Below the pieces are notes generated by a model, which saw nothing but the letters and a program-made list of their open reading frames with translations, was not told the origin of the DNA and searched no databases. A DNA stretch of 63,618 bases, filler included, from Octopus bimaculoides (Eukaryota), in the NCBI RefSeq assembly GCF_001194135.2. It is 6 parts of 6 records of this genome, joined end to end, with 100 filler letters (N's around TTAATTAATTAA, not from the genome) between each part and the next. Parts side by side here need not be neighbours in the genome. Positions count along the whole stretch, not along the records: positions 1 to 28,091 come from NC_068988.1; positions 28,192 to 49,852 come from NC_068992.1; 4 more parts are not named here. The stretch is one strand, 5' to 3'. The position numbers and the translations under genes are program-made. Each line of letters starts with the position of its first letter. Position 1 is the stretch's first letter. Shown here one piece after another: positions 352 through 51,090 of this stretch.

Positions 352-600
352 TTAAATCTGGCTTTTGCTGGAACAATGCACCATAAAGTCTTGACTGGAT
401 TCCAGCCAAATCAATTTCTCAATTTCCTTATCGTGTAGGGACTTTAGGGCTAATTTGGCAGAGTGAACAGTTGCATTATTATGTTGGTATATTGCCAAAC
501 TGTGATGAGTGAACTGTTTAAGTGTGGGTGAAGCTGCTTTCGTAAAACGTCTCCTAAATTGATCTTGTGTAGCCACAGGTCAGGTCAGATCTGATGCATT
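352..600 (-). mobile_element. Tc1/Tc3-like transposase remnant (DDE region)
   Basis: Minus ORF reads AIYQHNNATVHSAKLALKSLHDKEIEKLIWLESSQDF, resembling the Tc1 motif FQQDNAPxHxA...I-x-x-L-x-WP-x-x-SPDL. Catalytic residues are degenerate. Confidence 0.55.
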
Positions 601-1966
601 TTAATTCATATCTGATCCAGTTCATTCGAGCCATGGATATCGGACCAAGTATAGTGTATCTAGGGCTGTATTATTCATTGTATATTTCCGTTTTATATGA
701 TAGCTGCTTAAGAAAGATTTGGTTAATTTTTTTTTTGTGGCCCGATCGTTCATATAGAGGTCCTTCGTTAGCTCAGTTGCCTTCTCTTACTTTTGTACGG
801 TGACACTTTGCAGAGAAATCTAATCTATCGTCTTTCATGCTAAAGCAATTTCACACTATTCATTATGTCGGAATTTGTTATCTGAAATGGAAAGGAAAAT
901 CTTGATTCAGTAACACATTTTGCATATGACTAAGTCCTATTTTCTTTTTACATAAAGTGAACTTTCTTTTAAATCATGTGGATGTTATATTACGTCTTAT
1001 TCACATAACAATATATTGTCAAAATAAATATAGAAATATATAAAAAATAACAAACCTTTGCCTATCGGGTGAGAGTTTTATTGGTGGGGCAATAATCAAG
1101 TTACTAAAATGATAGTATAGCAATAATGAAGCTTTGTGAAAGTGTTTTCGACCGTAGAGTCGGGTTCATCAATAGCTTGTGAGTGGAATATAGTAGACGG
1201 AAACAATACAGAATCCTGTTGTATATTCAATATATTTGCTTTAAGGTGAAAGCTTAAAAAATCACTACTCTCCATTACCTTGTTTCTGATCTTCAAACGG
1301 TCGTAACTGAATAATACAGAAAGTATTTTATAGGTTTGAACTGACGAAGAAAAAGAGATTGAAGCATTTATATATGAGCACTTAAATGAAAAAAATCATT
1401 AAAAGAGCTAGTAGATCGTGTGTGGGTTTTTATATTTACAGAAGAACAAAGATTAGTATATATAAACATACTAAAATTCTAATATCTATGCTATTGAATT
1501 ATTGGAATGCATAGATACATGCGTATACATAGACACATATACACGCGTATGTATATATACATATATATATATAATAATAATAATAATAATATAGATTTAA
1601 TCAAAAGATTAAATGTGGTACTTAAAATGTTTGAGGCACCAGAATTTGGTAAGATAAAAACCAAAAACAAAATCAAGAGATTCGGCGAGTAAAATTTGAA
1701 GATAAGCAACACAAATTTAATAGGTTATAGCAGTACGTACGTTTCGTACAAGCTCCATTTATTCATGTAATGAGAACACCACAGAATGCTGCTGTTCCAC
1801 AGCAGCATAGTCGAGATGGTATGTTTTCTTCTCTTACTCTTGTTTTTTGCAAACATCTTCAAAATGACTTTCTAAAATGAAATTCCATTATGCAGCTGAG
1901 GAGTACAATTTCATTGTACATTCTATGGTGTTCTCACTACATGAATATATATATATATATATATAT

Positions 1967-3005: not shown

Positions 3006-3717
3006 NNNNNNNNNNNNNNNNNNNNNNNNNNNNNNNNNNNNNNNNNNNNNNNNNNNNNNNNNNNNNNNNNNNNNNNNNNNNNNNNNNNNNNNNNNNNNNN
3101 NNNNNNNNNNNNNNNNNNNNNNNNNNNNNNNNNNNNNNNNNNNNNNNNNNNNNNNNNNNNNNNNNNNNNNNNNNNNNNNNNNNNNNNNNNNNNNNNNNNN
3201 NNNNNNNNNNNNNNNNNNNNNNNNNNNNNNNNNNNNNNNNNNNNNNNNNNNNNNNNNNNNNNNNNNNNNNNNNNNNNNNNNNNNNNNNNNNNNNNNNNNN
3301 NNNNNNNNNNNNNNNNNNNNNNNNNNNNNNNNNNNNNNNNNNNNNNNNNNNNNNNNNNNNNNNNNNNNNNNNNNNNNNNNNNNNNNNNNNNNNNNNNNNN
3401 NNNNNNNNNNNNNNNNNNNNNNNNNNNNNNNNNNNNNNNNNNNNNNNNNNNNNNNNNNNNNNNNNNNNNNNNNNNNNNNNNNNNNNNNNNNNNNNNNNNN
3501 NNNNNNNNNNNNNNNNNNNNNNNNNNNNNNNNNNNNNNNNNNNNNNNNNNNNNNNNNNNNNNNNNNNNNNNNNNNNNNNNNNNNNNNNNNNNNNNNNNNN
3601 NNNNNNNNNNNNNNNNNNATATATATATATATATATATATATATTAGCTATTGATATATTAGATATATAGATATTGCAGGCAGGGGAGTGTACCATTACC
3701 ATCATCCAGCCACGAGA

Positions 3718-3765
3718 CCACCAAATCGTACGGTTTCGACCTTTTGTGGTCTTCCACAGTGGTGG
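3718..3765 (-). ncRNA. Minimal type-I hammerhead ribozyme-like motif (A6U core variant, extra A)
   Basis: Minus strand: CCACCA CUGUGGA A GACC acaaaa GGUC GAA ACCGUACGAU U UGGUGG. Stem I is 6 perfect bp, stem II 4 perfect bp, and stem III is a 10-nt palindrome with one mismatch. Confidence 0.6.
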
Positions 3766-4176
3766 ATACTCTTCGTACTATTTTCCTTCCTAATTGCACC
3801 CCTTGTATAAAATACTTGTTTAGTTTTCTTCGCTTTAATGTTCATTATCCATGATGTCCTCATTTCTTTTACACCAAGCCTTAATTCGTAACAATGTAAA
3901 ACGTAACTCCTCATATATATGTGTGGGGAGGGGGCATGCGCGCGCGCGTGTACGTGTATCTGTATATGCGTTTGTGTACAGATGTCCATGTATGACTGTG
4001 TGCATATTTGTGTACACCCAAATTATATAACTATAAACAACACTGTTTAAATTAAATAACTAAGAGAAATCCTGAGTTTAAGGTGCAGTAATTTACTGCT
4101 GCTTTATTGTGTGCATATTGATACATACATACATGCATAGATACATATACATAGATACATAGATACATAGATAAAT

Positions 4177-4255
<79 letters not shown>

Positions 4256-4499
4256 NNNNNNNNNNNNNNNNNNNNNNNNNNNNNNNNNNNNNNNNNNNNN
4301 NNNNNNNNNNNNNNNNNNNNNNNNNNNNNNNNNNNNNNTATATATAAATGCAGATATATTTATGACGTTACGAATTAATGCTTAGCATACAAGACATGAG
4401 AACATCATGAATAATGAAAATTCATGGAGGGAAACAAAACAAGCATTTTATACAGGGGGTGCAATTAGGAAGAAAAAATATACTTCGTTGCCAATTTTC

Positions 4500-7400
4500 C
4501 ACAAAGATGATAAAAAAAATAAATAGAACCGGGCGCAAAATGCAACACTGTCTAATCGAATCCAAATAGTAATTATGCATTAAGCTGGCTCATAATGAAA
4601 CAAAAATGTATTTAGTAGCTGTTTACATGGCACTAAATCCTTGGATAGACTGTGGGATACAAAGTTAACGTTAAAAGATAATTGAAGCCTTTGGGATGAC
4701 CTTTTCTTTTCAATTCATTTTTGCTATATTATTGCGATTATCTGTAAAATGCTTAGATGCAATGAGTATATTATTCAATATAACGTACCTTCAATTGCAC
4801 TTGTTGCTAACTTTTTATTTATTAAGTTTTCCTTTCAGACCAGATTTTAGTCAATCTGCTTAAGTTTGCAGTATCTTCCCTAGAGGAAACTTCTTCAGAG
4901 TAACGCTATTGTCTATTTTCATCTATACAAATTCTATAACCTACATATCTAACAATGTTATACTGCAAGAGTTCTTATAATGTTGAAGATAGTATTGCGA
5001 GAAATATCTTCTGTTGGAAATATTCAAAATGTTTAGCTGTTTCTAATGTATGACGTCCCTGTACTATATATTTATCCGCGAACCCATAAAGAAAATTATA
5101 ATTTACTAAAACATATACAAGACATTTGAATCACAATTGTAATATCATCATCGAGATTTATTCCTGTTCGTCGCAAGCTGTTTCACGGAGGATGTTTTAT
5201 TGAACATTTTTAACAGTTTCAATATTATCCTAAGCTACTACCATGTACAGCTAATTTAGTATGCATACGAGGCTTCCTTGGGCAATGCTGCAGAATGATA
5301 CCTCTAGTAATATTTATTGTGAGAGCTGTTTCATGTCCACCAAATTTGAAAACTTATTTCAATAAATGACAATATCCTAGTCGTCACGATAACAGACATT
5401 GGCAATGACAATAAAGCAGTCATAGAGTTCAAACCATTACTCAATGTATTTTCTTGTAGTTCGCGAGCAGAAAATATCCACTCATTGCTTCTGCGTCCAG
5501 GGCAAAAATCTGATTGAGACTCAGGAATAAATATTATCCAAAGGTGATGTATAGCACTATGAAATATATTATCTCTGAACAGAGAAATGCATCGAAATTA
5601 CACCTTCAGCAACGCATTTATCCAATCTTGAGAACATTTACAACTTTCAACATGTTATGAGATTAGCCATGTGATTCTTTTGATTTAAACTCGTGCACTT
5701 AAATATCATCAATGTCAGAAAAATTTCTCTTAAGTTTGCCCAAATCATTTCTGAACTGATTATATCAAAGCAATATTGAATTATTATTTGATGAACGTGT
5801 CTTAAAAGTAATCAATCACTCTTTGATGATCAATTTAGCAGATCACTATAATATTCTTTCCAGTGTTGAAATATCGTATTTACAGCTTTATCTGTTTCGT
5901 TCTCATTAGCCTCAACGGGGGTATAGGAAAGTACAAAAACCATAAAATTGATTTATTAGTTACAACGTTCCTTAATATTATTTCTACCATATACTTTCTG
6001 AAGATCATCATAATTCTGAATTTCTTCTGAACATTGTATTGTACCAATAAATTTACATTTTAACATACATATTTTTCCAATGATTATAAACTGATATGGT
6101 TACTATTGTCGCCCAAACAGTTCTTGCTGTTGAACTTCGTAACCATTAATAATTTATTTTCAAATTTTGTAATCCTCACTATTGAAGATGTCCAAAAAAG
6201 CAGTACTCGAGAGTATTAAAGCCTTGTACTAACTCTTGTCTGCTATAGATTTCCTTTACCAATGAAATATCAAGCCTTTTCAAGCGTTGAACGTTTGGGT
6301 CTTGGTTTGAGCTTCTCTTTAGTTCCTACAAAATTAAGCTCTGTGGTAATATATGATAATACTAAAGCTCAATAGGAATTTCTCGTCCCTTATTTATATA
6401 TAAACACACACACACACACACACACACACANNNNNNNNNNNNNNNNNNNNNNNNNNNNNNNNNNNNNNNNNNNNNNNNNNNNNNNNNNNNNNNNNNNNNN
6501 NNNNNNNNNNNNNNNNNNNNNNNNNNNNNNNNNNNNNNNNNNNNNNNATATATATATATATATATATATATAGGCGCAGGCGTGGCTGTGTGGTAAGAAG
6601 CATGCTTCCCAACCACATGGTTCCGGATTCAGTCCCACTGCATGAAACCCTGGACATGTTTTTTCCTCCTCCTAACATTACCGGTTCGACGAAAGAGACC
6701 AATAGAATGAGTAATAAGCTTAGAAAAAATAAGCCCTAGCGTTGATTTCTTCGACTAAAATTCTGTAAAGGAGTACTCCAGTGTCTTCTATTTGATAGGG
6801 TTGATAAGATCTTGTATACCTTTGAAATCATTTAAGCTTTTCTCACTATGAAAATTCATTTCTAAGAAATAAAGATACACAGTTCAATTTTCGTGATGCC
6901 ATTCATTCTAACCCTATTTTATAATGCCAATTATCATGGGCCTCCGAAAACTGGAACATCTGTCACGTCATACAAATCTTACTTTCTGCTAAGAACGTAA
7001 TCTATCATGGGCCTTTTCTGGGAACCTGGGTACATTTAATTTCTTAAGTGAATTTCTTTATGTTCAATGAATGTGTTATAAGGAGTGTCATACAATTCTG
7101 TTACACATTTGTAGCAAATGAAAGCTTATCAGGATCTGACATTGATATTTTTCTCCCATCATGTTCTAAAAGAATTCTTCTTTCAAAACTGTCACTAACT
7201 CTTGCGCTCAAGTCCCCAAAGAATTATCAGTTTATATTCTATTGAATTTTTTTTTACCGAAAAATGCTTTTTAGCTTCTCATAAAAGTGAATTTTCGATT
7301 TGATGAGACGTTCTTTGCTGATTCATCCAGAAGCACATCACTGAATGATCACAAGGTAAATGTATGGACATATACATAAATCTATAACATAAGCCAGTTG

Positions 7401-7800
7401 GTATATCAGTTACTCAGCTACTGTAGACATAATTGCAAATCCATTTCGCATTTCCTGTTCATATCTTCATGTCTTTTACACCAACGAATAATGTAGCTAT
7501 TAGGTATTTCACTATACTGACCATCACCAACAATAAATACAATTGTCAGAGAACGCAACGACATCAATCAGTCCTGTAATGAACAAGTCTCTTACAAAGT
7601 AGAGGAGATTATTTTTTTCATCGAGCGTCTATTTATCAATCTAAGTCCAATATTCGAAATGCCAAACGGTAAATCCTATATGTGTTCGTTGGTAGTCGAT
7701 TGGTGAGAGCTTGAGGCTAACTGCCTTTCTTTGGAAAATTCCGACCGCACAGCTTCGTGAACTCCTATCCCGCTAGGTCTTTTGGTAACATATTACTTTA
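4500..7800 (-). mobile_element. Highly degenerate RTE-type LINE (APE endonuclease + RT)
   Basis: Frameshifted minus-strand motifs occur in the expected order: FGISNIGL / IDVVAFSD (EN N-terminus, ~7650-7550), KLIIL-GDLSARV (~7210), HWKEYYSDLLN (~5860), QSDFCPGRRSNEWIFSARELQE (~5480), LSRLTKIWSE (~4850). Confidence 0.7.
6573..6782 (+). mobile_element. SINE (internally deleted) inserted in the RTE relic
   Basis: GGCGCAGGCGTGGCTGTGTGGTAAGAAGC...GGTTCCGGATTCAGTCCCACTG head plus AAAGAGACCAATAGAAT...TACTCCAG tail. Confidence 0.75.
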
Positions 7801-8190
7801 GGAGGTATACATTTCATAAATATTAATGTATTTTGTGTTTAAAGATTAGCACTAGCCTTATATTATCAAAGCGAATTTATCTCAAGTAGACTGCCGTATT
7901 GGTGTTAACAAACGTTACCTGTGCATTGAAAAGACCTAAGGTATTCGTAATAGAATATATGGTATGCACATTACGACACTGGTCAGAGGTAATAATCTCA
8001 AAAAAAGAAAAAAAAAAGAAAAACTCAACTACCACATTGGATGTAACATATGGTTGCAGATCAATGAATGCAATAGTTTGATATAGTAAATCTTATTCGG
8101 GGTGACCACATATAAGACTAGGTACAATAATCATGATTAAAGGACTCTAATCAATTCTGATAAAGAATGTTTCTTAATTATCTTGCGATG

Positions 8191-8228
8191 TTTGTTCTCC
8201 ACCGAATTATTATTCGGTGGAGAACAAA
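8191..8228. repeat. Perfect 17-bp inverted repeat with 4-nt loop
   Basis: TTTGTTCTCCACCGAAT tatt ATTCGGTGGAGAACAAA. Confidence 0.9.
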
Positions 8229-8240
8229 AGGACTCTGTTC

Positions 8241-8326
<86 letters not shown>

Positions 8327-8963
8327 TTCTCTCTCTTATACTAAAAATGTAGCGACCCAGTGATTGACTTGACATGACGCAACAATCAATATTGCTAGGC
8401 ATTTGCGATTTGAATTAAGTAGCTAAAAATTTATAAGAAGCCAGATGTTAGTCTTTTACTTTTTATTTCTAAAAATGTAATTTATCGTCCATTTTAAAAC
8501 CACCACGCAGCGCTCCGTGCCTTTAGCAGAGTCTTTCAATTACAAGTATTTGTATTACAGTTCAGGCCTCGGGAAAACACTTAATTGTGTATCTCACCTG
8601 TATTTTCTCCAACCCAATATTTCAGAGTCACAGAATATTGGTTATGGACACTTCCATTCCTCTTCTGAATATAGCAGAATTTTGAGTTTATTTAATGAAT
8701 ATTTTCGTGATCTCCCTGGGATCTATTATCAGTGATCCAGTGTTACAATCTTGGACAAGTAACTGACAGGTTAGTTTTGTGAGAATAGAAAGTCTTATTA
8801 ATTATCGGATAGCTGATGTATCGGATCTGATACCTGAATCCGATACCTGATGTACCGGATTCAGTGGAAATTTTGGAAGCGAAGTTAATCACAAGCAAAA
8901 AACAAATTAAAGTTATGTATTCAATAATTTTTTTTCTGTCATTCACCCCACCAAACATGTTCA

Positions 8964-9015
<52 letters not shown>

Positions 9016-9339
9016 TGTGTGCGTGTGTGCGGGTCCGTGCGTGCATGTGTGTGCATCTGTATGTGTGCGTATGTGCATGTGTGTGTGCGTGAGCGTACAC
9101 GCATGTGCGTGTATGTGCGTTTGTGCGTGTGTGTGCGTGCGCGTGCGTACGTGTGCGTGCAAAAACAGGGTTTATACCAACGGTAATGCACAAGTGCCGA
9201 CTTGAGCGCAACTTTAAGCATAAAGATAGTCGTTCACATTGCACATGTTTGTAGAATAAGTCTTCATCCATAGAATGGTACGACTCAAAGTAGTGTTTAA
9301 TGCAAGTCATAGTACAGCCCAACTCACGAATTCCCTTTC

Positions 9340-10120
9340 AAAATTTTAGTTGTGCACCGTAGTACCCAATTCTTCATACACAGCCCCTTCCACCACATCT
9401 GCCTCATCAAATCAATGTTGGATGATCAAATCATTAGATGAGACACGTGGAAGGAAAAAGACACAAGATGGGTGCGCATGGAAGATGAGGAACCACTGTA
9501 GATGAGGATGAAATTTGCCGATTGCGTGATATGTATCCAAAGATATGTGTGGTCGCCTATTCTCATGGTGAATGAAGATAGCTTTCAAAGTTTCGTGAAG
9601 TGTCTTTCTTTCTAACATCTTCCTTGAGATTCTTGGTATCCCAGTTTGCTACAGTCACGTTTCAGAAAATCCAGGGAAATAACACCTTTGTTATCTCCCA
9701 AAACAGTCACCATTAGCCTTCATCCTCGCGTTATAGTAATTTGGCCGTGATTCAACTCTTTCGTCATTGACTTCACTCGAAAGAACTGACCTCCACTCTT
9801 CTCCCTTTCAATAGGGCGTTGCCTGTCGAAGTATCTACTTTGCATATTCTAAATGATAACCAAATTCTTCCATCATATTTTATAATGCATTGTGATCCCA
9901 TTCTAGATGTGCAACAACCTCATGGCTTGTGGCACGTCCGTCTGTGTGAATCAATTCGTTCCCTTGCTTCCGACTCGTGCCAGTGGTTGAATGTCTCCAA
10001 TTGTGCGGTGTGTCTTTAAAGTTGTCTTACTTTTCTTTAAACTTCTTCATCCATTTGTGCGGGTTGTTCAGGTTAATGGTACCATCTCACGTGAATTTCG
10101 GGCATCCTGCCACCGATCTG
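9340..10120 (-). mobile_element. mariner-type transposase remnant
   Basis: ELIHTDGRATSHEVVAHLEW (HTH) and RLMVTVLGDNKGVISLDFLK (cf. KVMATVFWD-KGVILIDFL). Stops and frameshifts present. Confidence 0.7.
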
Positions 10121-10793
10121 GCTTTGAGTAAAAGAATATACAGGTGGATCAGTTAATTAGGATTTTATTCAGCATATTTCCTTAGATTATTGCAGCGATC
10201 CTTCTGTTTTTCTAAGCCCTGTAAGAGAACTCGAAGTTAGGGATTCCGACCAGGCCTATCACGATATACTTAAAGCCAGGAACTTTTAAGCACTGCATCT
10301 TATATACACACTGTGGAAAGTGAACGCAGATCGTCAAAGAACATAACTAGATATAAAAAGGCAATTTTAACCTGTCTGTACGCTATTTCTACTGTGTAAC
10401 GACCAAATGTAAGATAAATACTAAAACAAACCGACTGTTCTCTGCTTTAACCAAACAACAGATTTTTTTTCCTCCAATAGTTTGAAGAGGTCAAGAGTGT
10501 ATGTATAGTTTTTGCATTTAATGTTTTGCATTTCGACGTTTGATATTGTCCTTGTTTCCTTACAGTTAACCTTTCTCCATCAGCTCTATACTTTCAAACT
10601 GTCACCGTTGATGAGGGAAAACGTTTGTTGGCTGACATATTGTCGTGTACTTTTGATCTTGTCAAGCCAAATCATTTGGCTCAGCTGACTTATGTACTTC
10701 CATTGTTTCACTTTCTCAATACCTTCCTTCCTCCTCTTTCGCTTTCATGGTCTCTTCCCTTTCACTATGGGTTTCTACGCATCTATTGCTTTT

Positions 10794-10827
<34 letters not shown>

Positions 10828-10862
10828 ATGTGTGTGTGTGTANNNNNNNNNNTATTGCTTTT

Positions 10863-10896
<34 letters not shown>

Positions 10897-10995
10897 ATGT
10901 GTGTGTGTGTATGTATATATACATACATAGGTACACATACATATGCATATACATACACACATATATATCACATATATGCGTGTGTGCATGTGTGC

Positions 10996-11035
<40 letters not shown>

Positions 11036-11744
11036 GTAAGCATAATATATATATGCATATATGCACGTATATATATGTGTGCATGGAAATATACGCCTGT
11101 ATGTGAGCACAGACACAAACAGACACACACACACTTGTATGCACACACACATTCATACATACACACACACACACATACACACACATATGTTTCTATACAT
11201 ACGCATAAATATATGAGGGTAAGGAGCGTTCGTGCTTATTCCTGTGTAAGCATTTCTATGTATTTATCCTATGCCATGTATACACTTTCTTTGAAAGGTG
11301 ACAGCAGTTTCAACGTTTCACTTAATCTGGCTTTACAAATTCTGTAAGAAGAGATATTAGCCATATATAAACATATTAGAAGAAAATCAACGATGGAACA
11401 AATAGTTTTAGTATGTGGCAGCATGTAGTAAAGTAAAATAAAAGTTAAAAAATCGACATGGTTGATATAATATTTTTAAATTATTGCAAATTGCAGGGGG
11501 GAAAATGATGGCATGCATAGTTTAGAACTTGAGTGAAATATTTTATATGTATTGGGGAAAATTTAATATTAGCTGTTATTGCATGAGTTATTCTAACAGT
11601 TTATGTAAACATGACTATAAAGAGGTTGAATTTCAAAGAAAGCTGCACTGGATTGTAACGGATAATATTGTATTCAAATTTTGTGATAAGGCTAGCAATT
11701 TTGGAATAGGAGTTTAGTCGACCACTAATGCTTAACTGATATTT

Positions 11745-11875
11745 ATTTTATCGACCCAGAAAAGATGACAGGCAAAGTGGTTCTCTGCGGCATTTGAACT
11801 CAGAACATAAAGGCGGTCAAAATGCCGCTAGGCATTTTGCCCAGCGTGCTAAAGATTCTGCCAGTTCGCCGCCTT
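11745..11875 (-). mobile_element. tRNA-derived SINE (GGCGGCGA(G/A)CTGGCAGAA family)
   Basis: Plus strand ATCGACCCAGAAAAGATGACAGGCAAAGT...GAATTTGAACTCAG-like...TTCTGCCAGTTCGCCGCC. Relatives at 11900, 25235, 39600. Confidence 0.8.
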
Positions 11876-11899
11876 GGTAACTGATAATACTGAATCCAA

Positions 11900-12107
11900 A
11901 TTTTGGCATAAGGACAGCAATTTCGGGGGCGGTATAAATCGATTACCTAAACCCTAGAGCTCAAACTGGTACTTATTTTATCGATGCAGAAAAGGTGAAA
12001 GACAAAGTCGCTCTCAGAGGAATTTGAACTCAGATCGTATAGACTGACAAATACCGTTAAGCATTTTGTCCGGCGTGCTAGCGATTTTGTCACCTCCCCG
12101 CTTTAAG
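11900..12107 (-). mobile_element. Second, adjacent copy of the same SINE family
   Basis: GGTACTTATTTTATCGA...AAAGTCG...GGAATTTGAACTCAG...GCATTTTGTCCGGCGTGCTAGCGATT. Confidence 0.75.
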
Positions 12108-12189
12108 ATACCGATATTATAAAGAACAAGCAGAGATACCTTGCCTTACTCGGGATTAAAACGACATCGTTTGCATTACAGTTATGTTG

Positions 12190-12901
12190 AAACAGGTGAT
12201 GCAGGAAAGGGTAGCAATGACGACAAAACATTTGTGGAGAAAATGCTAAAGCTTTGCAAAAACGACAATTTGAGTTTAGCACACCAATTTGTACAGAATT
12301 ATCATTATTATAAAAATGGGACAGATCATATCTGAAAGCAGCTCCAGGTGTTGTGTAGAACGAATTTGTACGTGGTCTGTTTCAGAGAGCTATTCTATTA
12401 GACCTCTGTGTAATCTGGCATGCTAAACGTTGTTTTAATGATTCAGCATTAAGTGCTGCAACATGCATTTGCTGATTTTGGGAAAGTCATCTCCTTCCTC
12501 TCTTGAGACTCCATCTAATGTACTGCAGTATGCCTTTGCTGATCTTCAGAAAGTCTCATCTCCCAACTGTCTTGAGACTCCATTTGATGTGCTGCAGCAT
12601 GCCTTTGCTGATCTTGGGACTACATCAGACGTGCTGCAGCATGCTTTCGCTGATGCTGAGAAAGTCTCCTCATCCTTCTCTCTTGAGACTGTATTTGACG
12701 TGGTGCAGCAGCATACGTTTGATGATTTAGGAAAGCGTCCTGTCCTTTCTGTATTGAGACTCCATCTGACGCATTGCAGCATGCAGTTGCTGATGTTGAG
12801 AAAGTCTCATTCCCTTACGTTTTGAGATTCTCACCTTCGGTTTTCAGCACTCCTTGCTGTATTGGTGTTTCTGGAGAGAATACGTTTTTCCTTGGTGGCA
12901 T
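12190..12901 (-). mobile_element. Helitron Rep/Hel 5' remnant (STPR-like repeats + CxxC region)
   Basis: Minus strand from ATG at 12901: MPPRK..., then repeats such as RLSQHQRKHAAARLM*SQ and RLSEDQQRHTAVH*MESQERKEM, then GAAFRYDLSHFYNNDNSVQIGVLNSNCRFCKALAF (cf. Helitron AAFxYDP...IG-M---C--C-AL-F). Stops and frameshifts present. Confidence 0.75.
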
Positions 12902-28280: not shown

Positions 28281-29320
28281 TTCATGATTATTGTCCTAGA
28301 AACATGTCTTCGAAATTTGCTCCTAAGTTTTTCTTTCGCTTGGATACTTAAAACACGCATTATGTTGATATTGTTGCAACTTTCGTTAATAAGTCGACCA
28401 TCTGGTCGGATGCCAGATACTTTTGGTAGAATGTTGTTTTTAAAATCAAAGTTACATATTTAAAGAAATATCATAAGGTGGAAGAAGTTGGGTGATGACA
28501 GCTGTAAATACAACATCAACAAAACGGCTTCTTTCAGAAAAGTCAAAGTATTCCAAAGCAGTAACAGTCGTACCAAAACCTATACTAACACTACTATTAA
28601 CACTATTGCAATTACTTGGGTTAGCAGCAACAGTAGCAAGAAGTATAGTAATGACGAACAAAACAGTGAAATGTGCATTGAAATTAATAATACCAGTACT
28701 ACCGGCAACATTAACACCAAAACCATTATAAGCACCAACACTACAGTAACGAAACCATTTGCTAACGGATTTACTGGAGTATGTCTGGTGTTAGAGCTAA
28801 TTATTTTATCACTACGTGATCTGAACAACGAAATAAAATTATCAAAAGCAGAACAGATTCATTAACTATGTCAGGGCTTGCCCAGAAGGAAACCCACTAG
28901 AAAACAAAATTATATAATTGTACGGGATTAAATCTCAGACACGTGGGTGTTGGTATGATTACTAGAAAGCTATTTGTTGCAGCCCTTAAAATAGGTCGCT
29001 AGGAGTATATAGAGCCCTTGCTATATTGACATGTCTTCAGGTATATTTTATTGAAGCCAGGATGGAACAACCCGATATACGACATCTGAGATATTTCTAA
29101 TCTATATTGTAGGAGCGGATTGTATTTCTTTAAAAATATATATTTAACATAGTCTTCTCAAGCAACACAAACATCGATGAATGAGCTTATTGCTCCGTCC
29201 CAGTCATAAGTGTTCTCTGAATCCAAACATACAACATCATAAATACTTTTTTTATATACGAGAAGCTAAAAGAAGAAGAAGAAGAAGAAGAAGAAGAAGA
29301 AGAAGAAGAAGAAGAAGAAG

Positions 29321-29361
<41 letters not shown>

Positions 29362-29399
29362 CCTCCCAGTTCTGGGATATCAGGACCATACTAGACGCC

Positions 29400-29880
29400 A
29401 AAGAATTTATTTTGTCCGTCCAGCACCCCACAAGCAGGTTTGCACCAATTCTCTAATCAACCGAATCCACACGGCCCCATCATGTATCCAAGATGCCGGC
29501 CCATCTACCATCATCACTGAGTAGCAGATCCTTCCTAAGAAACACTAGACACCTTAAAAATCTGATCGCTCCGCATCTGTCGGGACGTAGATGACCTCTA
29601 CTCTGAAGTGATGGCCCTGAATATTGGTTACGTCCAGGAATATAGTTGGCATTTGCTGATCCAGGTTTTTCAGAAACAACATCGCGACACTGACGCTCTA
29701 CTAGCCGAATTGCGAGTGATAGGTTTCGTAGTTACCGAACATGGGTTTCAAGCTCGTACCTCGGAGATTCTGGTTTCTCTGATGGTTAATACATCTAAGT
29801 CTAGTAACCTGAGGTCGTTCTGTGGATGGTTTTACTTGAAAGACCTCCGCATGCATTCGAAGTATTCATTCACACTGCTA
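29400..29880 (-). mobile_element. L1/Tx1-type LINE APE endonuclease remnant
   Basis: NDLRLLDLDVLTIRETRI (cf. DVIxLQET) and FRVEVIYVPTDAERSDF. Frameshifted. Confidence 0.55.
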
Positions 29881-30560
29881 TTGTGCGCAAAGCCATCAAG
29901 ATGAAACTACGTATCTCCTTGTGGAATAGCAAGTGATCTGTCACTTCGGGTCACGTGTAGGAGTTTCCAAGAGTAAATTTTATATATATATTTTCTAGTT
30001 GTTCGACGAAAATCTCCCATTGCGATGGTAGTTATTCTTTCTCTTATGTTGTTTTTTAGGATTAGATTTATAGATGTGCTTGTGTTGGTATTTTAATTGT
30101 AGATACGATTTAGTCACCGTGTGAAATATTTGCACGTCGATGTATGTGATTCTTCAATTCTTTGTTCGTTATCCCTGGTATGCTTCTGTGCGGGTATTGT
30201 CCTCGTCATTGGTATGCTGGTAGAATGGGTTGTGTTTGTGTTTGTTGTGGTAATTGTAGGGTTGATGTATTCTATGTTGTTGGTGTTGTGGTGGCGGTGG
30301 AGTTGATTTTTATCAAAGAACATTTTTCTTTTTTCATCCTTTCTTTCCCATCACAAAGAGATATTTTTCTATCCATTTTTCATCTTTTTCTATTTTTGTC
30401 CGTTGCTAGTGATCGTGCTGCTGATGTTTTGTTGATGATGATGTATTATTTTTTAACAAACTCTCTTTCTAATCGCAACACCAGTGCCTGTTCTGGCACT
30501 GATTTTCTATACATCGCCTGCAGGGAGATGAATCACTGTTATCTCTAGCGGTCGAATGTC

Positions 30561-30605
30561 CATCATTGATGAGATCAAGGAAGGTCGAAATCACGTGATC
30601 TGGTG
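30561..30605 (+). ncRNA. Minimal type-I hammerhead ribozyme-like motif (C3U, palindromic stem III)
   Basis: CAUCA UUGAUGA GAUC aaggaa GGUC GAA AUCACGUGAU C UGGUG. Stem I is 5 bp, stem II 4 bp, stem III a perfect 10-nt palindrome; AUC cleavage triplet. Confidence 0.7.
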
Positions 30606-31718
30606 TCTCGGCGCTGGAGGTGGTGGGGATTTCTTTCCTCGTTAACGATATAAACAAACGTGTATTTTGCACCAAAAGCCTATATAAGAGTTTCTTTCAT
30701 ACTATCTACTGCAGTAACGTTTGTTCTAAAAGAACCTCCACGTTTAAGCGGAGCTGATTTCACCTTGTAAGGTTGTTACAGTTTTGTTAAGTGTTAATGC
30801 TGCTTTTGCTGTTGCTCCTCTTTTTGTGACTACTGCATCTGATTCTGCACTTGCTGTGCTTTCACGCTGCTGTCGTTGTTGTTGTTGTTGTTGCTGTTGT
30901 GGTGGTGGTAGTGGTGAGGGGGGTAGTTCTTTCTCAGGGTGTAGCGTTGGCAGAAATAGGGGCCTTCTTTCGTTTAACATGTACCGTGGGCAAATCCAAA
31001 TGAAAGTAGTTAATTGCACCATAAATGTGATACATTGGCCTTATGTCCTCAACCCTTACTTTCAAACTGATGCCATTTGGTCACTCAATTAAGTCAGAGA
31101 TGGTTCCAATATTCTTTTGATTTATTTGTCTTAATTGCTCCAAGCCTAGAGTGAACATTTCTCGCGGTGCATTTGGTGAATTTTCATGACTGCCCCATCT
31201 TCGAAACTTTTTAAGTTAAAAGTATCTAAAAATAAGTGCTTATTATTATGTATACCTGAAAATGTTGTAGGTATCTTTATATTATACAATCCGTATTTGC
31301 TTGGATAGCTATTTGTAGAATCTATGTCTTTTTATTTGATCGTTTGAATTTACAGAAATCCCTTTAGCATTTTCATGTGATGTATAGCATTATTTATTCA
31401 TCATTTTAATTTTGTTTTCATATACTTCTAATGCTATCTTCACTATCCACTAACTTAATATATTTTTATATTTGAATATTGTTTTATGTAAGTGACTCAA
31501 ATGTCAGTTTAGCTTTTAAATACTGCTTAATCCAAAGATATTTTGATATAAAAAGAAACTCCTATTTACTAGCACAATTCTAAAGAATAATAGCGCACCT
31601 CTACTCTAGTGTCTCAAAGTACGACATGTTCTTAATACACAATTTCCAATTGTTGCGTAGAAATTGACCAATCCAGTGGTAACCTTGATCACTGTCTCTT
31701 GGTTTTCTTTTTTTGTAG

Positions 31719-31756: not shown

Positions 31757-32749
31757 GTATTTAATTTTCAAAGTGAAGAATAGGAAAGTTGTTAGAAATT
31801 CCTAAAGGTTTCCATTTTAGCAACTGAACAAAGTTATCCATCATGTATTAAAAATGTCTTACTTCCGAGGTCAGAAGAAAGGGACTGTTCTAATGGCCTT
31901 CGCAGGCCCTCCAAGTTAAATGGTATTGATGCTATTTAATACATCTTTTGAATCTTTATAAAGCCACTCTAGCGGGAACGACAAAAGCAAGAAGAAAATT
32001 CCAGACACTGACTTTCGAGAAAGGGAAAAAACTGGGCGCAATCTTTTTTGCTCAGTTGAACAATACGAAGTGGTGAGACGAATAGAGACAAGAAGAACGG
32101 AAATGCTCGAGATTTATGAACTTACTTTCTTCTCGGAGATTCATACAAGTACTATGGTCTTTGTAATAAAGCGATAAATACATTTGCAAGTATACCTTGC
32201 ACTTGTTTACAATTTCGAGTTTACTCCTTGCAGTGTTATTTTTTCCCCGCATTTCTTTTATATGATACCTTTCTTAATATTCTAGCTGATAGCTATCTTA
32301 CTGTATGATGTGCCCTGATTTTTAATTTCTGTTTACGTAGCTCTTCACAATAGAGTTACGCCAGAAGCAAATTGTACGTTCAGAGGCGTAACCGTTTTCA
32401 TAACAAATAACTAATGATTTGTCATGAAAGTATTGCTATAGATAACATTTTATTTTACTATTGTTATATTTTGTATTTCTGTTTCTCGTTCATTTTTATA
32501 TTTAGATGTTTTTGTAATCGATCCAAAAAAGGTATTGGGATATTTTCTTTTTTACCTTTAACATCTATAGTCATATGTATAAGTTTAGATATTCTTCTAC
32601 CAGAACCTGTAAATGATGGCCTCTTTCCCTTTAAATCATTGTGACTGTTGCGTATGTCCTTTTTTCAGTATGACTGTTATGGCTCATTTCAATAATTTTG
32701 TTTCTCTTTATGCTAACACTTAATTCTGGTGTGTGTGTGTGAGTGTTAA

Positions 32750-33095
32750 ACTGCAGTCATGCTTGAGCATCACCTCCAAGAATTTTAGTTCAACGAATCG
32801 ACACTAGTACTTACTTATTAAAACCTGGTATTTATTTTATCCGTCTCATTTACCGAACCACTAAGTTACGATGATATAAACACACCAACAGCGGTTGTCA
32901 AGTTGTCGTGGATGTTGCAAATACACACACATATGTATATATATGCAACGGGCTTCTTTTAGTTTCCGTCTGCCAAATCCACTTACAAGGTTTTCGTCAG
33001 CCCAAGGCAATAGTAAAAGACATTTTTACAAGGGATTGAAGCCAGATCCATGTATTGGAAAGCAAACTTCTTACAACACAGCCACACGCATCCGT
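32750..33095 (-). mobile_element. SINE, full length (major family)
   Basis: Tail GCAGTCATGCTTGAGCA...CTAAGTTACG, internal (CA)/(TA), head GCAAACTTCTTACAACACAGCCACACGC. Confidence 0.8.
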
Positions 33096-33599
33096 ATATT
33101 TATAGATGTGTGTGCGTGTGCGCGCGCGCGTGTGGAATGTTTTTAAAAGTGACACACGCGTTGATATGTATAAGGAAAATATGACAAGGTAGAAAATGCT
33201 AAAATAAGTTTGTCATGAAATAGAATTTGTAACGGTTAGTACCGATTTCTGACTCTTCGACTTTTTCAAATAAGAATAAAACAAAGGTGGATATTAATAA
33301 AGAAAAAAAAANNNNNNNNNNNNNNNNNNNNNNNNNNNNNNNNNNNNNNNNNNNNNNNNNNNNNNNNNNNNNNNNNNNNNNNNNNNNNNNNNNNNNNNNN
33401 NNNNNNNNNNNNNNNNNNNNNNNNNNNNNNNNNNNNNNNNNNNNNNNNNNNNNNNNNNNNNNNNNNNNNNNNNNNNNNNNNNNNNNNNNNNNNNNNNNNN
33501 NNNNNNNNNNNNNNNNNNNTTGCATTTAAATCTGGGATCAATGTACAGTCATCCTCTGGCGTAGACTGATTTTAGTTTTATCAATATATTGATCTTGAC

Positions 33600-34680
33600 A
33601 ACCTGATCAAGTTAACACAAATATCAGGTTTTTCGAAGCAACTCACTGCATCAGCAACTTTTTTAATGCCCCCTTAAAACCATTCTTCACGCATGTCAAA
33701 AGCTGCATAAGGGACGACCTAGATATGTTCAAACACCCTCTTGAAATTAAAAAAAAAACTGCTAGTATCCTTTGAAGTAGGCAACCTGTACGCTGATATC
33801 TCTCACAACACAGGGATGGAGGCAAATGAATTCTGGCAAGGGAATTACTCTAAAGAACTCCCATATCATATCACAAAAGAATTCGTAACAGAAGGGATAA
33901 AATTCATCTTGGAAAATAAGTTCCTTGTATTCAAGGACAACTTCTGTCGACAGTAAAACTGGGACTGCGATGAGTACGAGAATGGACCCCTCTTTTGCTA
34001 ATCTAATCGTAGGGTACATAAAAATCACTCTTTATCGTAAGGTGATAGACAAATACGGTAACCCATTCTCCCTTTACATAGAAAATAACTGGAAGAGATA
34101 TCTAGACGATTGCTTCATTCTTTGTCATGAAAGTATAGAGAGACTTAAAGAATTTCAAGCACGTCTAAATAGACTTGAGATAAACATTCAATTTACGATG
34201 GAACATAGCCTTCAACAACTTAAATTCCTCGACATCCTCATTAAGAAATCCAACAGCAAAATAAAAACAGACATATACTATATGACCACGGACTCCAAGC
34301 AATATCTACCGTTCAACTCATGCCACCCCAGACACAATAGAATGAATATCCCCTTCAGCCTGGCAAAAATGATTTGCACTATAGTATCTGATAGAAGCAC
34401 CAGAGACACACGACTTCATGATTTAAAGGATACACTCATCAGCAGGAATTACAAACCATCCCAAATAAATAAAGGTTTTAAACATGCCCTACAACTCAAC
34501 ATCCACGAACTCAAACATCCCAATCTAGAGAATGAATTACAACTAAAAGTCTTATTATACATGTCCACACACAACCCCCTAAACAATGAAGCCTTTGGCA
34601 CCATCTTCCAGAACAATCCTTCACTAAAAAGGGACCATAAAATCAATTAAATCCTCTAAACGCACACCATCATAAACATT
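33600..34680 (+). mobile_element. Penelope-like element RT pseudogene fragment
   Basis: KSCIRDDLDMF, LVSFEVGNLY, KTGTAMSTRMDPSFANL, WKRYLDDCF, LKFLDILI, TDIYYMTTDSKQYLPFNSCHP: PLE RT and thumb motifs with frameshifts. No GIY-YIG domain seen. Confidence 0.9.
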
Positions 34681-34789
34681 AAAAAACAGTTATGTGAAAA
34701 AGTTACCATAAGAGGGATTAATCAATGTAGTCAACAAACCCCAATATATAGCAGCTGACTACCTGTTAGGTTAAGAATTTATTAAGGAG

Positions 34790-35145
34790 AGTCAGTTCTT
34801 GAATGAAATAGAACTAAAAAGATATACAACCATCGCAATGACTGGAGCTGCCCTAATGCCCATAGCAATTCTGGATTTTTGTCGGTAGAAAGTATTGTCA
34901 AATATGAAGTGATTGTTTCGTAAGTTGAATTCAACCGATTTAGTAATGAATTATTTACTGATCCTGTTTGGAATTTCTTCCGGGAATTGGTCCAGCCAGA
35001 ACTGAATTGCCTCTAGTCCATAATTATGAGGTATACTGGTGTATAAATTAATCACATCAAATGAAACCATGATTGTTTCTTCCTTGACTTTCTTTGGGAG
35101 GTGATTTAACATATCCAAGTCATCTCTGATATAGCTATTGATGTG
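34790..35145 (-). mobile_element. Second, divergent PLE RT fragment in opposite orientation
   Basis: SYIRDDLDMLNHLP...MVSFDVINLYTSIPHNYGLEAI, then after a frameshift NNHFIFDNTFYRQKSRIAMGIRAAP. Confidence 0.85.
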
Positions 35146-35985
35146 TNNNNNNNNNNNNNNNNNNNNNNNNNNNNNNNNNNNNNNNNNNNNNNNNNNNNNN
35201 NNNNNNNNNNNNNNNNNNNNNNNNNNNNNNNNNNNNNNNNNNNNNNNNNNNNNNNNNNNNNNNNNNNNNNNNNNNNNNNNNNNNNNNNNNNNNNNNNNNN
35301 NNNNNNNNNNNNNNNNNNNNNNNNNNNNNNNNNNNNNNNNNNNNNNNNNNNNNNNNNNNNNNNNNNNNNNNNNNNNNNNNNNNNNNNNNNNNNNNNNNNN
35401 NNNNNNNNNNNNNNNNNNNNNNNNNNNNNNNNNNNNNNNNNNNNNNNNNNNNNNNNNNNNNNNNNNNNNNNNNNNNNNNNNNNNNNNNNNNNNNNNNNNN
35501 NNNNNNNNNNNNNNNNNNNNNNNNNNNNNNNNNNNNNNNNNNNNNNNNNNNNNNNNNNNNNNNNNNNNNNNNNNNNNNNNNNNNNNNNNNNNNNNNNNNN
35601 NNNNNNNNNNNNNNNNNNNNNNNNNNNNNNNNNNNNNNNNNNNNNNNNNNNNNNNNNNNNNNNNNNNNNNNNNNNNNNNNNNNNNNNNNNNNNNNNNNNN
35701 NNNNNNNNNNNNNNNNNNNNNNNNNNNNNNNNNNNNNNNNNNNNNNNNNNNNNNNNNNNNNNNNNNNNNNNNNNNNNNNNNNNNNNNNNNNNNNNNNNNN
35801 NNNNNNNNNNNNNNNNNNNNNNNNNNNNNNNNNNNNNNNNNNNNNNNNNNNNNNNNNNNNNNNNNNNNNNNNNNNNNNNNNNNNNNNNNNNNNNNATATA
35901 TTATATATATAATATATATATATAATTTAGAGAAAAGAACCAAAGTTCATGAACTCATTCATGAAAATCCACAGTCACATATAGA

Positions 35986-36118: not shown

Positions 36119-36770
36119 GTGAGAGGAACAAACGCACACACACATATATATGTGTGAGTGTCTACATATGTGTATATGCGTATGTACATGTGTATGCATA
36201 TACAACCTTCATAGGTATATGTATATGTATATATGTGTGTATATACAACCTTCAACAAAGTAACAGTCATGTATACAATTTGAACTGACACACATATCAG
36301 TACATAAACATACATTCACATGTACATATATATGTACACACACACACACAAACACGTCTACACACCTATTACTCACGTACATCCATAAGTGCATACGTGC
36401 ATACTCACATACATACATATATGCATATATACATACATGCGTAGAGGCATGCACATATTCATACACATGTACACAGATGCATACGCGCACACATGTACAC
36501 GCACATAGAGACATACATGCATACATACATACACACATACATACGTACATATATATCATGAACTAACTGTTACTTACTCAGTTGCAGCACAGCATTTTGT
36601 CAGTGAACAGGTCGAGGTCTCAAAGCGTGTACAAATAACGCAGAATAAATAAATAAATAAATAGTTACCAGAGTGGCAAAAAATTCACATAAATACCAAG
36701 GATGTTACAGCCTACTTAAAAGATAAAAAGTTCAGAGTTTAGTGAAATGTTTTTGATTAACAGATCAATA

Positions 36771-37168
36771 AAGAAATGGAGTTAAACGCAGATGTCATTC
36801 AAATCTTTAAATTTAAGATACATGTTTCGAAGAAGATATTGGAGGGAATAAAACATTAGAGGGAATAAAATATTATAATACAATGTGATCTTCTCATCAA
36901 GGAAAAATAGTCAAACAACATCAATAAGCCATTTTAACCGAATGTAACTACTGTGTATATGATGAAGGGAACGCTGGCAAGTTATTCCAAAAAATGACTT
37001 ACCAGGGTTCCCTTCATCATGTTTATGTTGTTTCTCTTTTTTCCCTGATGAGAGGATCGCATTGTCTAACATCATTTTATTCCCGCCGGAATAATACCAA
37101 TGTTTTCTTCGAAACATTTGTCGGAAGTATAAAGGTTTGAAGAACACCTGCGTTTTACTCCATTTTTT
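36771..37168. repeat. Degenerate ~400-bp fold-back palindrome centred near 36990
   Basis: Inner stem ATGATGAAGGGAAC/GTTCCCTTCATCAT with CTGGCAAGTTATT/AATGACTTACCAG. The outer arms 36771-36908 and 37037-37168 align as diverged reverse complements. Confidence 0.8.
37040..37127 (+). ncRNA. Type-I hammerhead-like motif with canonical core
   Basis: UUUCC CUGAUGA GAGGA...(long loop)...UCUUC GAAAC auuu GUC GGAAG. Stem I is UUUCC/GGAAG; GUC triplet. The mirror copy in the left arm is decayed. Confidence 0.5.
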
Positions 37169-37179
37169 ATATATACATA

Positions 37180-43199: not shown

Positions 43200-45249
43200 G
43201 TAAGAATCATACAGTTAACCTTCCTCTCGTATTTCGATGGCTCCAACAAAAATGGACGTACATTCGTAACTCCAGTGGGCTGAATTGCTGGAGAAAAATG
43301 ACCGGGCCTTTTGGATATTATACATCTTGAGTGATGGCTAGAATAATAGTGACGTGATAAATAGCGATGTGTGATATGAGGTGTGTAAGTGAAAGTTGCA
43401 CTGGACAAGCTAGATCGAAGAAGCAAAGGCTACTGTAGTAGTGATAGAAAACGGTCAGAAGATACATCATAGTGCTAATTATAGGCAGTATTCGACTAAT
43501 TGACACTTTATTAATCTAACCGGGTTTGAATAAATTCAACGCAGTTCTATATAAGTTTTCAACTGTAAATTTCAGTAATTACAGTCAGAAATAATTTGTT
43601 CCAGAAAGATCGTTAAAAAGAAATTTCATGTAATTTGTGTTACATAATATTTTTTTAATTAGTCGATTTGTACATTTAAACTGGAAACTAACTGAAAAGT
43701 TGTTCATGGTCATTCTACTGTGTTAATTTGTCTGAAGAGAAAATAATTTCAGGTTTTATCAGACACTAGATATTCACTGGTGGTCAATTCATCTTTTTAT
43801 CTCTGTCAAAATTAAATTAAAGATTTTATAGCATCATTTGTATAAATTAGTTTTATTATTAACAGTCACAAATGCTAGCATTATCTCCTGCTATAATTCG
43901 TTTTACTTTCATATAGTGTCATTAATTGTGTTAAGATTTAAACTTTTCTTTAAACCCTTGGCAGAATAGATGTTTCTTTTATAGCTTTTGTTATACTTAT
44001 GGGTGGTGTTTATTGCAAATATTTCAAGATGGTTTTCATAAAACTCACCAGAGGTTATTTTGTGACTTTCTTATTTTTTAATACCAAGATGTTTCAGTTG
44101 AAGATTATGTTATAATAGCTATTGAAGACTTTTATCTGAAATTTGAATTAGGCACTGGTATGAGATTTCAAAAATAACTTATACTCTTTCTCATATTTTC
44201 CCATGTTCATGATTTTACTATATAAATAAAATGGCTGTAAGAGAAGAGTAACAAATCAAAATCAGAACCATGAATTTATATCACACCACAATTATTTGCT
44301 TCTATTTCTAAGCAATACAATTTAAATGGAACAGTTGACAAGAAAGGTTACTACAAAAGTACTGTCGCCCTAACCAGTGGAAGATATACTTTATATCTGA
44401 TAAACACAAGTGATGTAGATCAACATAAGTTATACAACACTTTATAGGCCAGATAAGAATATATATATGTGTGCGTAGTGCGTGTGTATGTGTGTGTGTA
44501 TGTGTAGATGTACATAAGATAACTGTATGTTAATATCATTTTACATACAACTTGACTGTGCTCATACCGTTCACCAGCTGTCTACAAGAGATCGCATCAC
44601 TTTCAGCGCCTACTGATATCATCGCCCCGTCGGGCAGTGCTGGGCATCCACCTAATTTTAGTTCACTCAGTATCATGCTTTTTTCCCCCATTTTAGGATA
44701 TCGGGGAAGCTTTAACACCACTGTAACCACCTCAAAAATGCAGCAACATCTGTAATTATTTGAAGTTGACCACCTGATATTCTACTCCACAAGATGCATA
44801 ACATGACACTTTAGTTCACATCATCAAATGCTTTGGGGTAATTCGCAAATACAATTTCTGCCTTTAACTTCAAAGATTTTGTGCTTTTCTGTGTTTTTTT
44901 TAATGACAAGGATCTATCTACAATAATGTTTATCTCCTTTTGCTGAAGCTGAGGCGAAGTTCTAATTATGAGGCACAGTGATTTTGGTCTGTTAGGGTAA
45001 ATGTGAAAGAATAACACGTCTACAATTTTGAGGCAAGTGAAGGTCACTTTTCATTGAAAGTGGCATAATTCTAGACTTCGAGAAGGCTGTTACTTTATTT
45101 CCGTTATATGTTTCATTTCAGAGGTGCAAAAGATGTTTACGGTGGAGTACGTTCTTCTAGATGATATCAGGGATATGATATTTCTAACCTACTTTAGACA
45201 TTTTCAAACTCTTCTATGATAAACAGACAAATCAGAATCGTCAAGCTAT

Positions 45250-48596: not shown

Positions 48597-48793
48597 ACAA
48601 CAGCAGCATCATTATTTTCATATTTCCCTCAGCTTATATATATATATATACATACATATATATACATATTCGTATTTCTTTTGTCACTTGCACGTTTCTA
48701 CTATCATTCATCATTGCCTATTACACTGTACAGTGAATAAATTGCCGTCTAAGTTACGCAAAAATGAAAATAACACTGACATTTCATTTTAAC

Positions 48794-49592: not shown

Positions 49593-49795
49593 ATATAAGT
49601 TTACTTGCATTTATTTCTGATTTCTTATTCAGGGTCTAAGTTCGTGGGATAGATAAGTCTGTTGACTAGAAGCAATAAGCGAGGGTAGATATGCGATACC
49701 TCACCCACACACATACGCCTGCACGCACTCTCTTTCTCTCCCTCTCACTCACTCACTCACTCACACACACACACACACACGCGCGCGCGCGCACG

Positions 49796-50992: not shown

Positions 50993-51090
50993 TGTATATA
51001 CATCTATTTATATTTATATATATATATATGTGTGTGTGTGTATCTAAATGTATGTATGTATGTATCTATCTCTCTCTTTCTCTCTCTCTC

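Follow-up and report, generated by a model that had tools for sequence, protein, structure and literature searches.

A high-copy, transcribed hammerhead repeat of about 336 nucleotides in octopus DNA, likely a retrozyme

We examined a stretch of 63,618 nucleotides (nt) of Octopus bimaculoides DNA (assembly GCF_001194135.2), referred to below as the window, for two hammerhead ribozyme motifs and the repeat to which they belong. The window is AT-rich, filled with microsatellites and contains 6,123 N across 30 runs. A preliminary description of the sequence had placed motif A at 3765-3718 (minus strand), reading CCACCA / CUGUGGA / A / GACC-ACAAAA-GGUC / GAA / ACCGUACGAU / U / UGGUGG, and motif B at 30561-30605 (plus strand), reading CAUCA / UUGAUGA / GAUC-AAGGAA-GGUC / GAA / AUCACGUGAU / C / UGGUG. 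Both were found exactly as described, as was the palindrome in helix III, which is perfect over 10 nt in B and, in A, is interrupted by one mismatched pair. Each corresponds to a type-I hammerhead. In copy B (30561..30605, plus strand), the core occupies 30566-30572, helix II 30573-30586 and helix III 30590-30599, with cleavage predicted after C30600. In copy A (3718..3765, minus strand), the core lies at 3759-3753 and is followed by an extra A at 3752; helix III spans 3734-3725 and position 17 is U3724. The core consensus CUGANGA is broken in both copies, defects that had gone unmentioned. C3 is replaced by U in B. In A, A6 is replaced by U, an additional base follows A9, and the second pair of helix III is a C-A mismatch. 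Core changes of this type would cripple cleavage. Since each copy has a core defect, both are likely catalytically dead or weak, as judged from the sequence.

A relaxed descriptor (core with at most 1 mismatch, 4-bp helix II, GAAA, UH and 5-bp helix I), applied to both strands of the window, matched exactly two loci, A and B. In 60 dinucleotide shuffles the mean was 0.083 loci each and none had a palindrome of at least 10 nt, a figure that is somewhat generous as the descriptor was written post hoc, with the motifs known, after a stricter one requiring the 15.2-16.2 pair had missed A. The proposed kinship of the two copies was borne out. Among 606 window tiles compared with the repeat unit of B, A ranked at the top (score 51; mean 23.1, standard deviation 3.9; next tile 38.5), and 40 of 61 columns of the A-B alignment were identical. 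The Rfam search that had been suggested gave a divided result, with B matching HH9 weakly at 30548-30621 (17.8 bits, E 0.072, below the gathering score of 52) and A giving zero matches. Among the 150 of 287 matches listed for the whole window, only microsatellite-type ones were present. The scores below threshold would be expected if the resemblance to hammerheads had arisen by chance, but two loci were observed against 0.083 per shuffle, A and B are related to each other, and B lies inside a conserved repeat. Chance resemblance was ruled out by the shuffles, by the kinship and by the read mapping of the repeat described below, and its probability is practically nil.

Sequencing reads were mapped on 29950-31250 only, at 80% likeness, with four of the 24 listed runs. 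These were the DNA run X2, runs X14 and X17, labelled as two organisms other than that of X2, and the RNA run X21, of which about 6% was read. Statements on variants, joints, loose ends and pieces hold among the entries listed, beyond which there are a further 210 variant rows, 81 joints, 821 loose ends and 3,473 pieces. With X2, 1,414 contigs were mapped, and 21, 66, 370 and 957 of them fell in the likeness bands of 99% and above, 95-99%, 90-95% and under 90%, respectively. The summed depth was 4,232-78,900 over 30434-30741 and dropped to 1,018 in the following bin, while the flanks displayed a depth of 37-100 (about 41 beside the repeat, and 0 in one bin at a skipped repeat). X14 and X17 gave the same depth profile. 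The repeat containing B is present at high copy number in three species labels, between single-copy flanks. The depth points to hundreds of copies or more, although summed contig depth, as the tool itself warns, is not equal to copy number.

Copy B could be delimited by the depth step and by reads spanning a joint as a near-complete monomer at 30447..30753 (plus strand), covering 307 of about 336 nt, non-coding and with a GC content of 42%. The longest pieces among those listed begin at 30447. In four RNA reads the end of the unit is joined to its start, passing from 30753 through 29 letters to 30447. One X17 contig runs back from 30748 to 30469. Inspected by eye, the loose ends that follow 30748 (39, 32 and 26 contigs, agreement 0.66-0.71) look similar to the 29 letters. 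Based on the joint, the X17 contig and the matching loose ends, the repeat unit is about 336 nt (307 + 29) and circularly permuted. One stop-free frame of 75 codons lies on the antisense strand of the unit. A tblastn search using 115 of 116 fetched Penelope-like proteins as queries (one chimeric entry was excluded; E 0.05) found no Penelope homology inside the unit of B. Another X17 contig, across 30664-30854, consists of unit and flank. As it carries the unit joined to the flank, the insertion of B is old, and likely predates the split from the species label of X17.

With regard to the site of insertion, broken frames are found at approximately 29400-29890 (minus strand) and in the flanks 29950-30446 and 30754-31200, which are near single-copy; none had a Pfam match. 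By eye, we take them to resemble the endonuclease start of an L1/Tx1-type long interspersed nuclear element (LINE). B may have inserted antisense into the low-complexity first open reading frame (ORF) of that element.

Concerning expression, 360 of 12,895,792 reads of X21 were mapped, all within 8 of 30 bins (30434-30785). The repeat family is transcribed, from copies other than B. First mates came from either strand, with counts of 61 and 39 in the bin of the hammerhead.

We then considered the letters that other members of the family carry. At 30575, C replaces T in 101 of 104 RNA reads and in 83% of X2 depth, and helix II becomes all Watson-Crick. A G after 30604 (31 contigs and 102 loose ends in X2) brings helix I to 6 bp, and G for A at 30556 closes a further helix past an internal loop. 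The family letters at all three positions shift B towards A. Two groups of RNA loose ends, one of 37 reads ahead of 30564 and one of 35 reads after 30604, display, by eye, a compensatory helix-I variant with CUACCA/UGGUAG, and GGG/CCC for GAG/CUC, a variant which presupposes that both groups of loose ends come from one subfamily. The geometry of the hammerhead is canonical type-I, with a 6-bp helix I interrupted by an internal loop and a 4-bp helix II; the published canonical layout has the same helix lengths (PMC4209133). In the hammerhead of B, loop 1 is internal, and loop 2 has 6 nt, the last two being AA. Mussel retrozyme hammerheads lack a conserved tertiary contact between loops 1 and 2 (PMC7229834).

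Beyond helix I, the unit is predicted to fold into a long rod (30512..30650, plus strand) that extends this helix and carries the hammerhead at its tip, with a fold energy of -51.5 kcal/mol for the strand of the hammerhead and -30.5 kcal/mol for its complement. The outer arms of the rod contain 24 Watson-Crick pairs, 11 G-U pairs and one A-C mismatch. Since a decaying inverted repeat in DNA would yield G-U and A-C at similar frequencies, this asymmetry of 11 to 1 favours structure at the RNA level, with the caveat that energy minimisation itself prefers G-U. The whole unit folds with a z of -3.19, and 0 of 100 shuffles were as stable. In the minimum-energy fold of the damaged copy B the core pairs wrongly with helix III; the rod with the ribozyme free at its tip is a prediction. 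The unit also contains a small 7-bp hairpin by fold prediction (30482..30501, plus strand), and a second conserved block with a small possible hairpin (30654..30697, plus strand), which is the deepest bin in all four runs (78,900 in X2, against 33,584 at the hammerhead).

These results bear on the possibility that the repeat is an old one, similar to a short interspersed nuclear element (SINE) or a satellite, in which the hammerhead is a dead relic, the RNA is passive read-through and circles are not formed. The core defects of both local copies, the old insertion of B, apparently common to the species label of X17, and the small number of RNA reads, running in both directions, would agree with such a repeat. 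On the other hand, the hammerhead bin is deeper than both neighbouring arms in all four runs (X2: 33,584 against 17,767 and 11,569), expressed copies restore helix II and retain helix I by compensatory change, and ARAGORN found no tRNA gene in the window. We regard a relic of this kind as very unlikely.

Copy A was examined by folding and by alignment to B, and is a truncated, divergent fragment at 3645..3775 (minus strand; ends approximate) that comprises the hammerhead and the 3' arm, with the 5' arm missing or replaced. The match to the unit of B starts at about 3775, takes in the hammerhead and extends into the 3' arm, beyond which the copy gives way to (TA)n and a 613-N gap. Its 3' arm at 3671-3688 is the sole match in the window of a motif derived post hoc from the loose ends of the family, with 0 matches in 100 shuffles. 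An inverted pair of 112 bp (3781-3892 and 4367-4477, 84% alike) surrounds a microsatellite-rich stretch, and one of its arms abuts A at the position where the 5' arm would be expected. Judging from the sequence, A likely represents an older copy that was truncated, or else a member of a sister subfamily.

Taken together, we consider, with a probability of roughly 0.8, that a type-I hammerhead repeat of about 336 nt, non-coding, transcribed and present in high copy, has left a decayed monomer in B and likely a truncated relative in A, and that this repeat is likely a retrozyme without long terminal repeats (non-LTR retrozyme). The high copy number, the unit, the head-to-tail joint and the RNA reads support the short, dispersed, non-coding hammerhead repeat family of the preliminary description, and its label of retrozyme is the fitting one. 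Metazoan non-LTR retrozymes have units of 150-450 bp and a GC content under 50% (PMC7229834), and the repeat, at about 336 nt and 42% GC, is within the published range in both respects. According to the retrozyme model (PMC7229834, PMC7761336), a multimeric transcript of the repeat would be produced, and self-cleavage of the multimers by the hammerhead, followed by ligation, would generate small RNA circles of about 336 nt. For intact members, cleavage likely takes place in the monomer, by means of a 3-bp helix III; folding as a dimer, which the palindrome permits, would be a second route. The circles would then be reverse-transcribed by a borrowed enzyme, of which Penelope-like elements are the proposed donor, and the permuted copies would be inserted into the genome.

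Several observations weigh against identifying the repeat as a retrozyme. In addition to the results with Rfam and the caution on summed depth given above, A is only about 68% like B and may belong to a sister family. Among the 360 RNA reads, none is at least 95% like B, 79 being at 90-95% and 281 below. No pile-up of read ends is listed for X21, and the four reads across the joint are compatible with tandem transcripts as well as with circles. Both copies in the window are solitary, and permuted monomers would give the same head-to-tail signal as tandem arrays. A target-site duplication of B was not found, the longest shared word near its ends being 8 nt and located 14-28 nt off the boundaries; B is old. 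Neither the letter most common at core position 3 nor any variant of helix III is among the family variants listed. Finally, the reverse complement of the entire unit has a stable fold as well (z -2.93).

The palindromic helix III raises the question of whether cleavage proceeds in monomers or dimers. Helix III of B (30590..30599, plus strand), a perfect 10-nt palindrome, forms 3 bp with an ACGU loop in a monomer and a 10-bp duplex in a dimer. The calculated self-duplex is -12.9 kcal/mol for B and -9.4 kcal/mol for A, whereas the intramolecular helix contributes just -0.7 kcal/mol to the active fold of B and destabilises that of A. A dimer fold is feasible in these models. The cleavage rate of monomeric repeats is about 0.8 per min for coral and about 0.1 per min for mussel, and axolotl retrozymes cleave much better as dimers (PMC7229834); in invertebrates, the majority of retrozyme hammerheads cleave in monomeric form (PMC7761336). 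As a helix III of 3 bp plus a tetraloop matches the monomer-cleaving invertebrate hammerheads, the palindrome does not imply dimer cleavage. Palindromes in helix III are frequent in other sequences too: of 13 matches to the core in metagenomes, 5 have a perfect one of 8 nt, all in one unrelated family.

The preliminary description had gone further, in proposing that selection has preserved self-complementarity. Concerning helix III alone, this corresponds to an alternative to the monomer step, and not to the family itself, in which cleavage occurs in dimers only and the palindrome is maintained by selection even as its letters change. Both copies are palindromic, A and B carry different letters on either side of two loop pairs of helix III, the self-duplex energies compare favourably with those of the monomer helix, and axolotl retrozymes provide a precedent for far better cleavage as dimers (PMC7229834). 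Nevertheless, only two sequences are compared, and the covariation score, a check that had been suggested, was reached by 132 of 500 shuffles and is not significant on two rows. All five differences in helix III are transitions, and paired transitions would restore Watson-Crick pairing automatically; judging from the sequence, four of the five could be explained by CpG decay from a single GCGC-type loop. With two copies only and differences of this kind, the claim of selection is not supported in the form proposed, and the cleavage of coral and mussel monomers at the rates above (PMC7229834) also counts against a requirement for dimers. We consider selection on the palindrome and dimer-only cleavage tentative possibilities.

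A bolder version would be an active cephalopod retrozyme producing abundant rod-like circles of about 336 nt, whose subfamily-specific 10-nt palindromes act as a self-recognition code, with homodimer-only cleavage separating co-resident lineages. We consider this unlikely. Octopuses carry out extensive adenosine-to-inosine (A-to-I) RNA editing. If the proposal were true, the long duplex of the circles would be a ready substrate for this editing.

We also examined the relationship of the repeat to Penelope-like elements, as a decayed cluster of such sequence is present at 33529..35145 as identified by tblastn. It comprises a GIY-YIG fragment (33529-33639, minus strand) and two reverse transcriptase (RT) regions (33641-34689, plus strand; 34816-35145, minus strand). 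The best relative of the RT frame is an Octopus vulgaris protein with 56% identity, and among the full-length relatives scanned, RT was found in 3 of 3 and GIY-YIG in 2 of 3. No Pfam family was found in the RT frame itself, nor in endonuclease-like and transposase-like frames. From its linker motif, we take the cluster to be Neptune-type. A cysteine linker of this kind suggests the Neptune clade (PMC8557442). The arrangement is inverted, with N gaps on either side, and the cluster lies 2.9 kb from B, 2.8 kb past the end of the unit across single-copy DNA. With the 115 queries (E 0.05), no Penelope protein homology was found between B and 33529. The hammerhead core was not found in 32300-35146, around the remnants, and neither B nor A displayed homology to any Penelope ORF end. 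The earlier statement that there is no adjacent RT thus needs amendment, RT remnants being present 2.9 kb from B; no sequence link between them and B was found. Penelope-like remnants are a candidate class of mobilising partner. We also considered B as the upstream pseudo-LTR of the nearby RT. This was rejected, as the RT is 5'-truncated (starting near residue 250), nothing homologous lies between the two and the repeat stops at 30753.

Another interpretation is that the hammerheads derive from solo pseudo-LTRs, or from a short non-autonomous derivative, of a Penelope-like element, and cleave as dimers. The listed features of Penelope hammerheads include a helix III that is palindromic and, as seen in copy A, an additional base following A9, and such motifs mostly occur as solitary copies (PMC4209133). 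One of the RT remnants near B is on the same strand. A palindromic helix III, however, is not diagnostic of Penelope, as canonical metazoan hammerheads have one too, and the minimal hammerheads of the Schistosoma families have a helix II of 7-8 bp and a helix I of 4-5 bp (PMC4209133). In the window, helix II is 4 bp and helix I is 6 bp, so that the earlier assignment to the minimal type-I hammerheads of Penelope-like elements does not fit these dimensions, although variants in other animals differ from those of Schistosoma. In addition, the region from B to 33529 is devoid of Penelope protein homology, the repeat terminates at 30753 and joins its own start, and the insertion after A9 is absent from the family variants listed and from B. 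An origin from a Penelope-like element is therefore improbable in our view, and a non-LTR retrozyme remains the interpretation we favour.

A metagenome scan for the hammerhead core identified 11 loci; none was similar to A or B (blastn, E 0.1) and none had Penelope protein homology. Scans with family-specific motifs gave 0 matches in a viral and 0 in a prokaryotic collection. The metagenome contigs L006, L007, L009 and L010 contain an unrelated repeat family of about 39% GC whose helix III is an 8-nt palindrome, with hammerheads 492 bp (L006) and 504 bp (L007) apart, and these repeats are a candidate for another retrozyme family. On a 126-kb contig (L001:1197-1244), a type-I hammerhead (33.1 bits) is located 22 bases from an alphaproteobacterial transfer-messenger RNA gene on the same strand. 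L004 (1201-1240, 1309-1363) and L005 harbour related loci with the hammerhead core, the second match on L004 being type-III-like, on the opposite strand and about 70 bases off.

The rest of the window contains traces of other elements. The intervals 48767-49614 and 50163-51017 form an 850-bp direct repeat, 82% alike, which presumably contains mariner-like transposase remnants, as seen by eye. At 61809-62081 there is a weak match to a transposase helix-turn-helix (E 0.017). Broken frames at about 4500-6400 (minus strand), 26946-27400 and 44814-45050, with no Pfam match for the two scanned, are by eye presumably pieces of LINE reverse transcriptases. Those at 355-720 (minus strand) and 28300-28860 appear by eye as Penelope N-terminal or Asn/Thr-rich-like frames and were unmatched by Neptune-type proteins. 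The sequences 36768-37170 (64% over about 400 bp, possibly a miniature inverted-repeat transposable element) and 63107-63237 (94% over 131 bp beside a gap, possibly an assembly fold-back) are self-inverted. Islands of 12 bases between paired runs of 44 N occur at 28136-28147, where the island is a TTAA repeat, and at like places at 49897, 57065, 59104 and 61431; these are likely scaffolding spacers and not genomic sequence.

Known hosts of metazoan non-LTR retrozymes include the coral Acropora millepora (220-240 bp), the mussel Mytilus galloprovincialis (350-390 bp) and the axolotl (330/350 bp) (PMC7229834, PMC7761336). In the giant squid genome, 235 Hammerhead_1 matches were counted without being described (PMC6962438). 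In our literature searches, the accessible parts of the sources retrieved describe no octopus or cephalopod retrozyme family, and the supplement of PMC7229834, Dfam or Repbase may list one. The repeat is likely a further metazoan non-LTR retrozyme, in a host group not named for retrozymes in the accessible text of PMC7229834. A specialist would find such a family expected rather than surprising. It would extend non-LTR retrozymes to a likely cephalopod host, and provides a unit, its boundaries and signs of expressed subfamilies. It would also be a system for the question, left open in PMC7229834, of which autonomous element mobilises retrozyme circles. The 10-nt palindrome stands between the designs of monomer-cleaving invertebrate and dimer-cleaving amphibian hammerheads, and is useful for understanding why helix III stays palindromic.

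We finally compared the repeat with known systems. B spans the full model of Rfam HH9 (RF02275; clan CL00010, together with Hammerhead_1, RF00163), agreeing with it in helix lengths and having a loop 2 of 6 nt, but its 17.8 bits are far from the gathering score of 52, and A is unmatched. HH9 is, we presume, an amniote intronic family and not a repeat family. With the minimal hammerheads of Penelope-like elements, the repeat has in common the type-I topology, the palindromic helix III, the dispersed solitary copies and, in copy A, the extra base after A9. It differs from them in its 4-bp helix II, in its 6-bp helix I with an internal loop and a long extension, and in the presence of helix III. 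In further contrast to them, its unit joins head to tail without an ORF, and the nearby Penelope remnants are unlinked. For metazoan non-LTR retrozymes, helix III usually consists of 1-2 bp and 2-4 nt, whereas here it is 10 nt long (3 bp and a tetraloop). Those retrozymes form tandem arrays and circles and cleave, while the octopus repeat is known from sequence and reads, with solitary and damaged copies in the window. As in those retrozymes, however, there is one canonical type-I hammerhead per non-coding unit, the repeat is high-copy and transcribed, self-pairing is strong with the ribozyme predicted to be free, and Penelope-like elements are present in the same genome.

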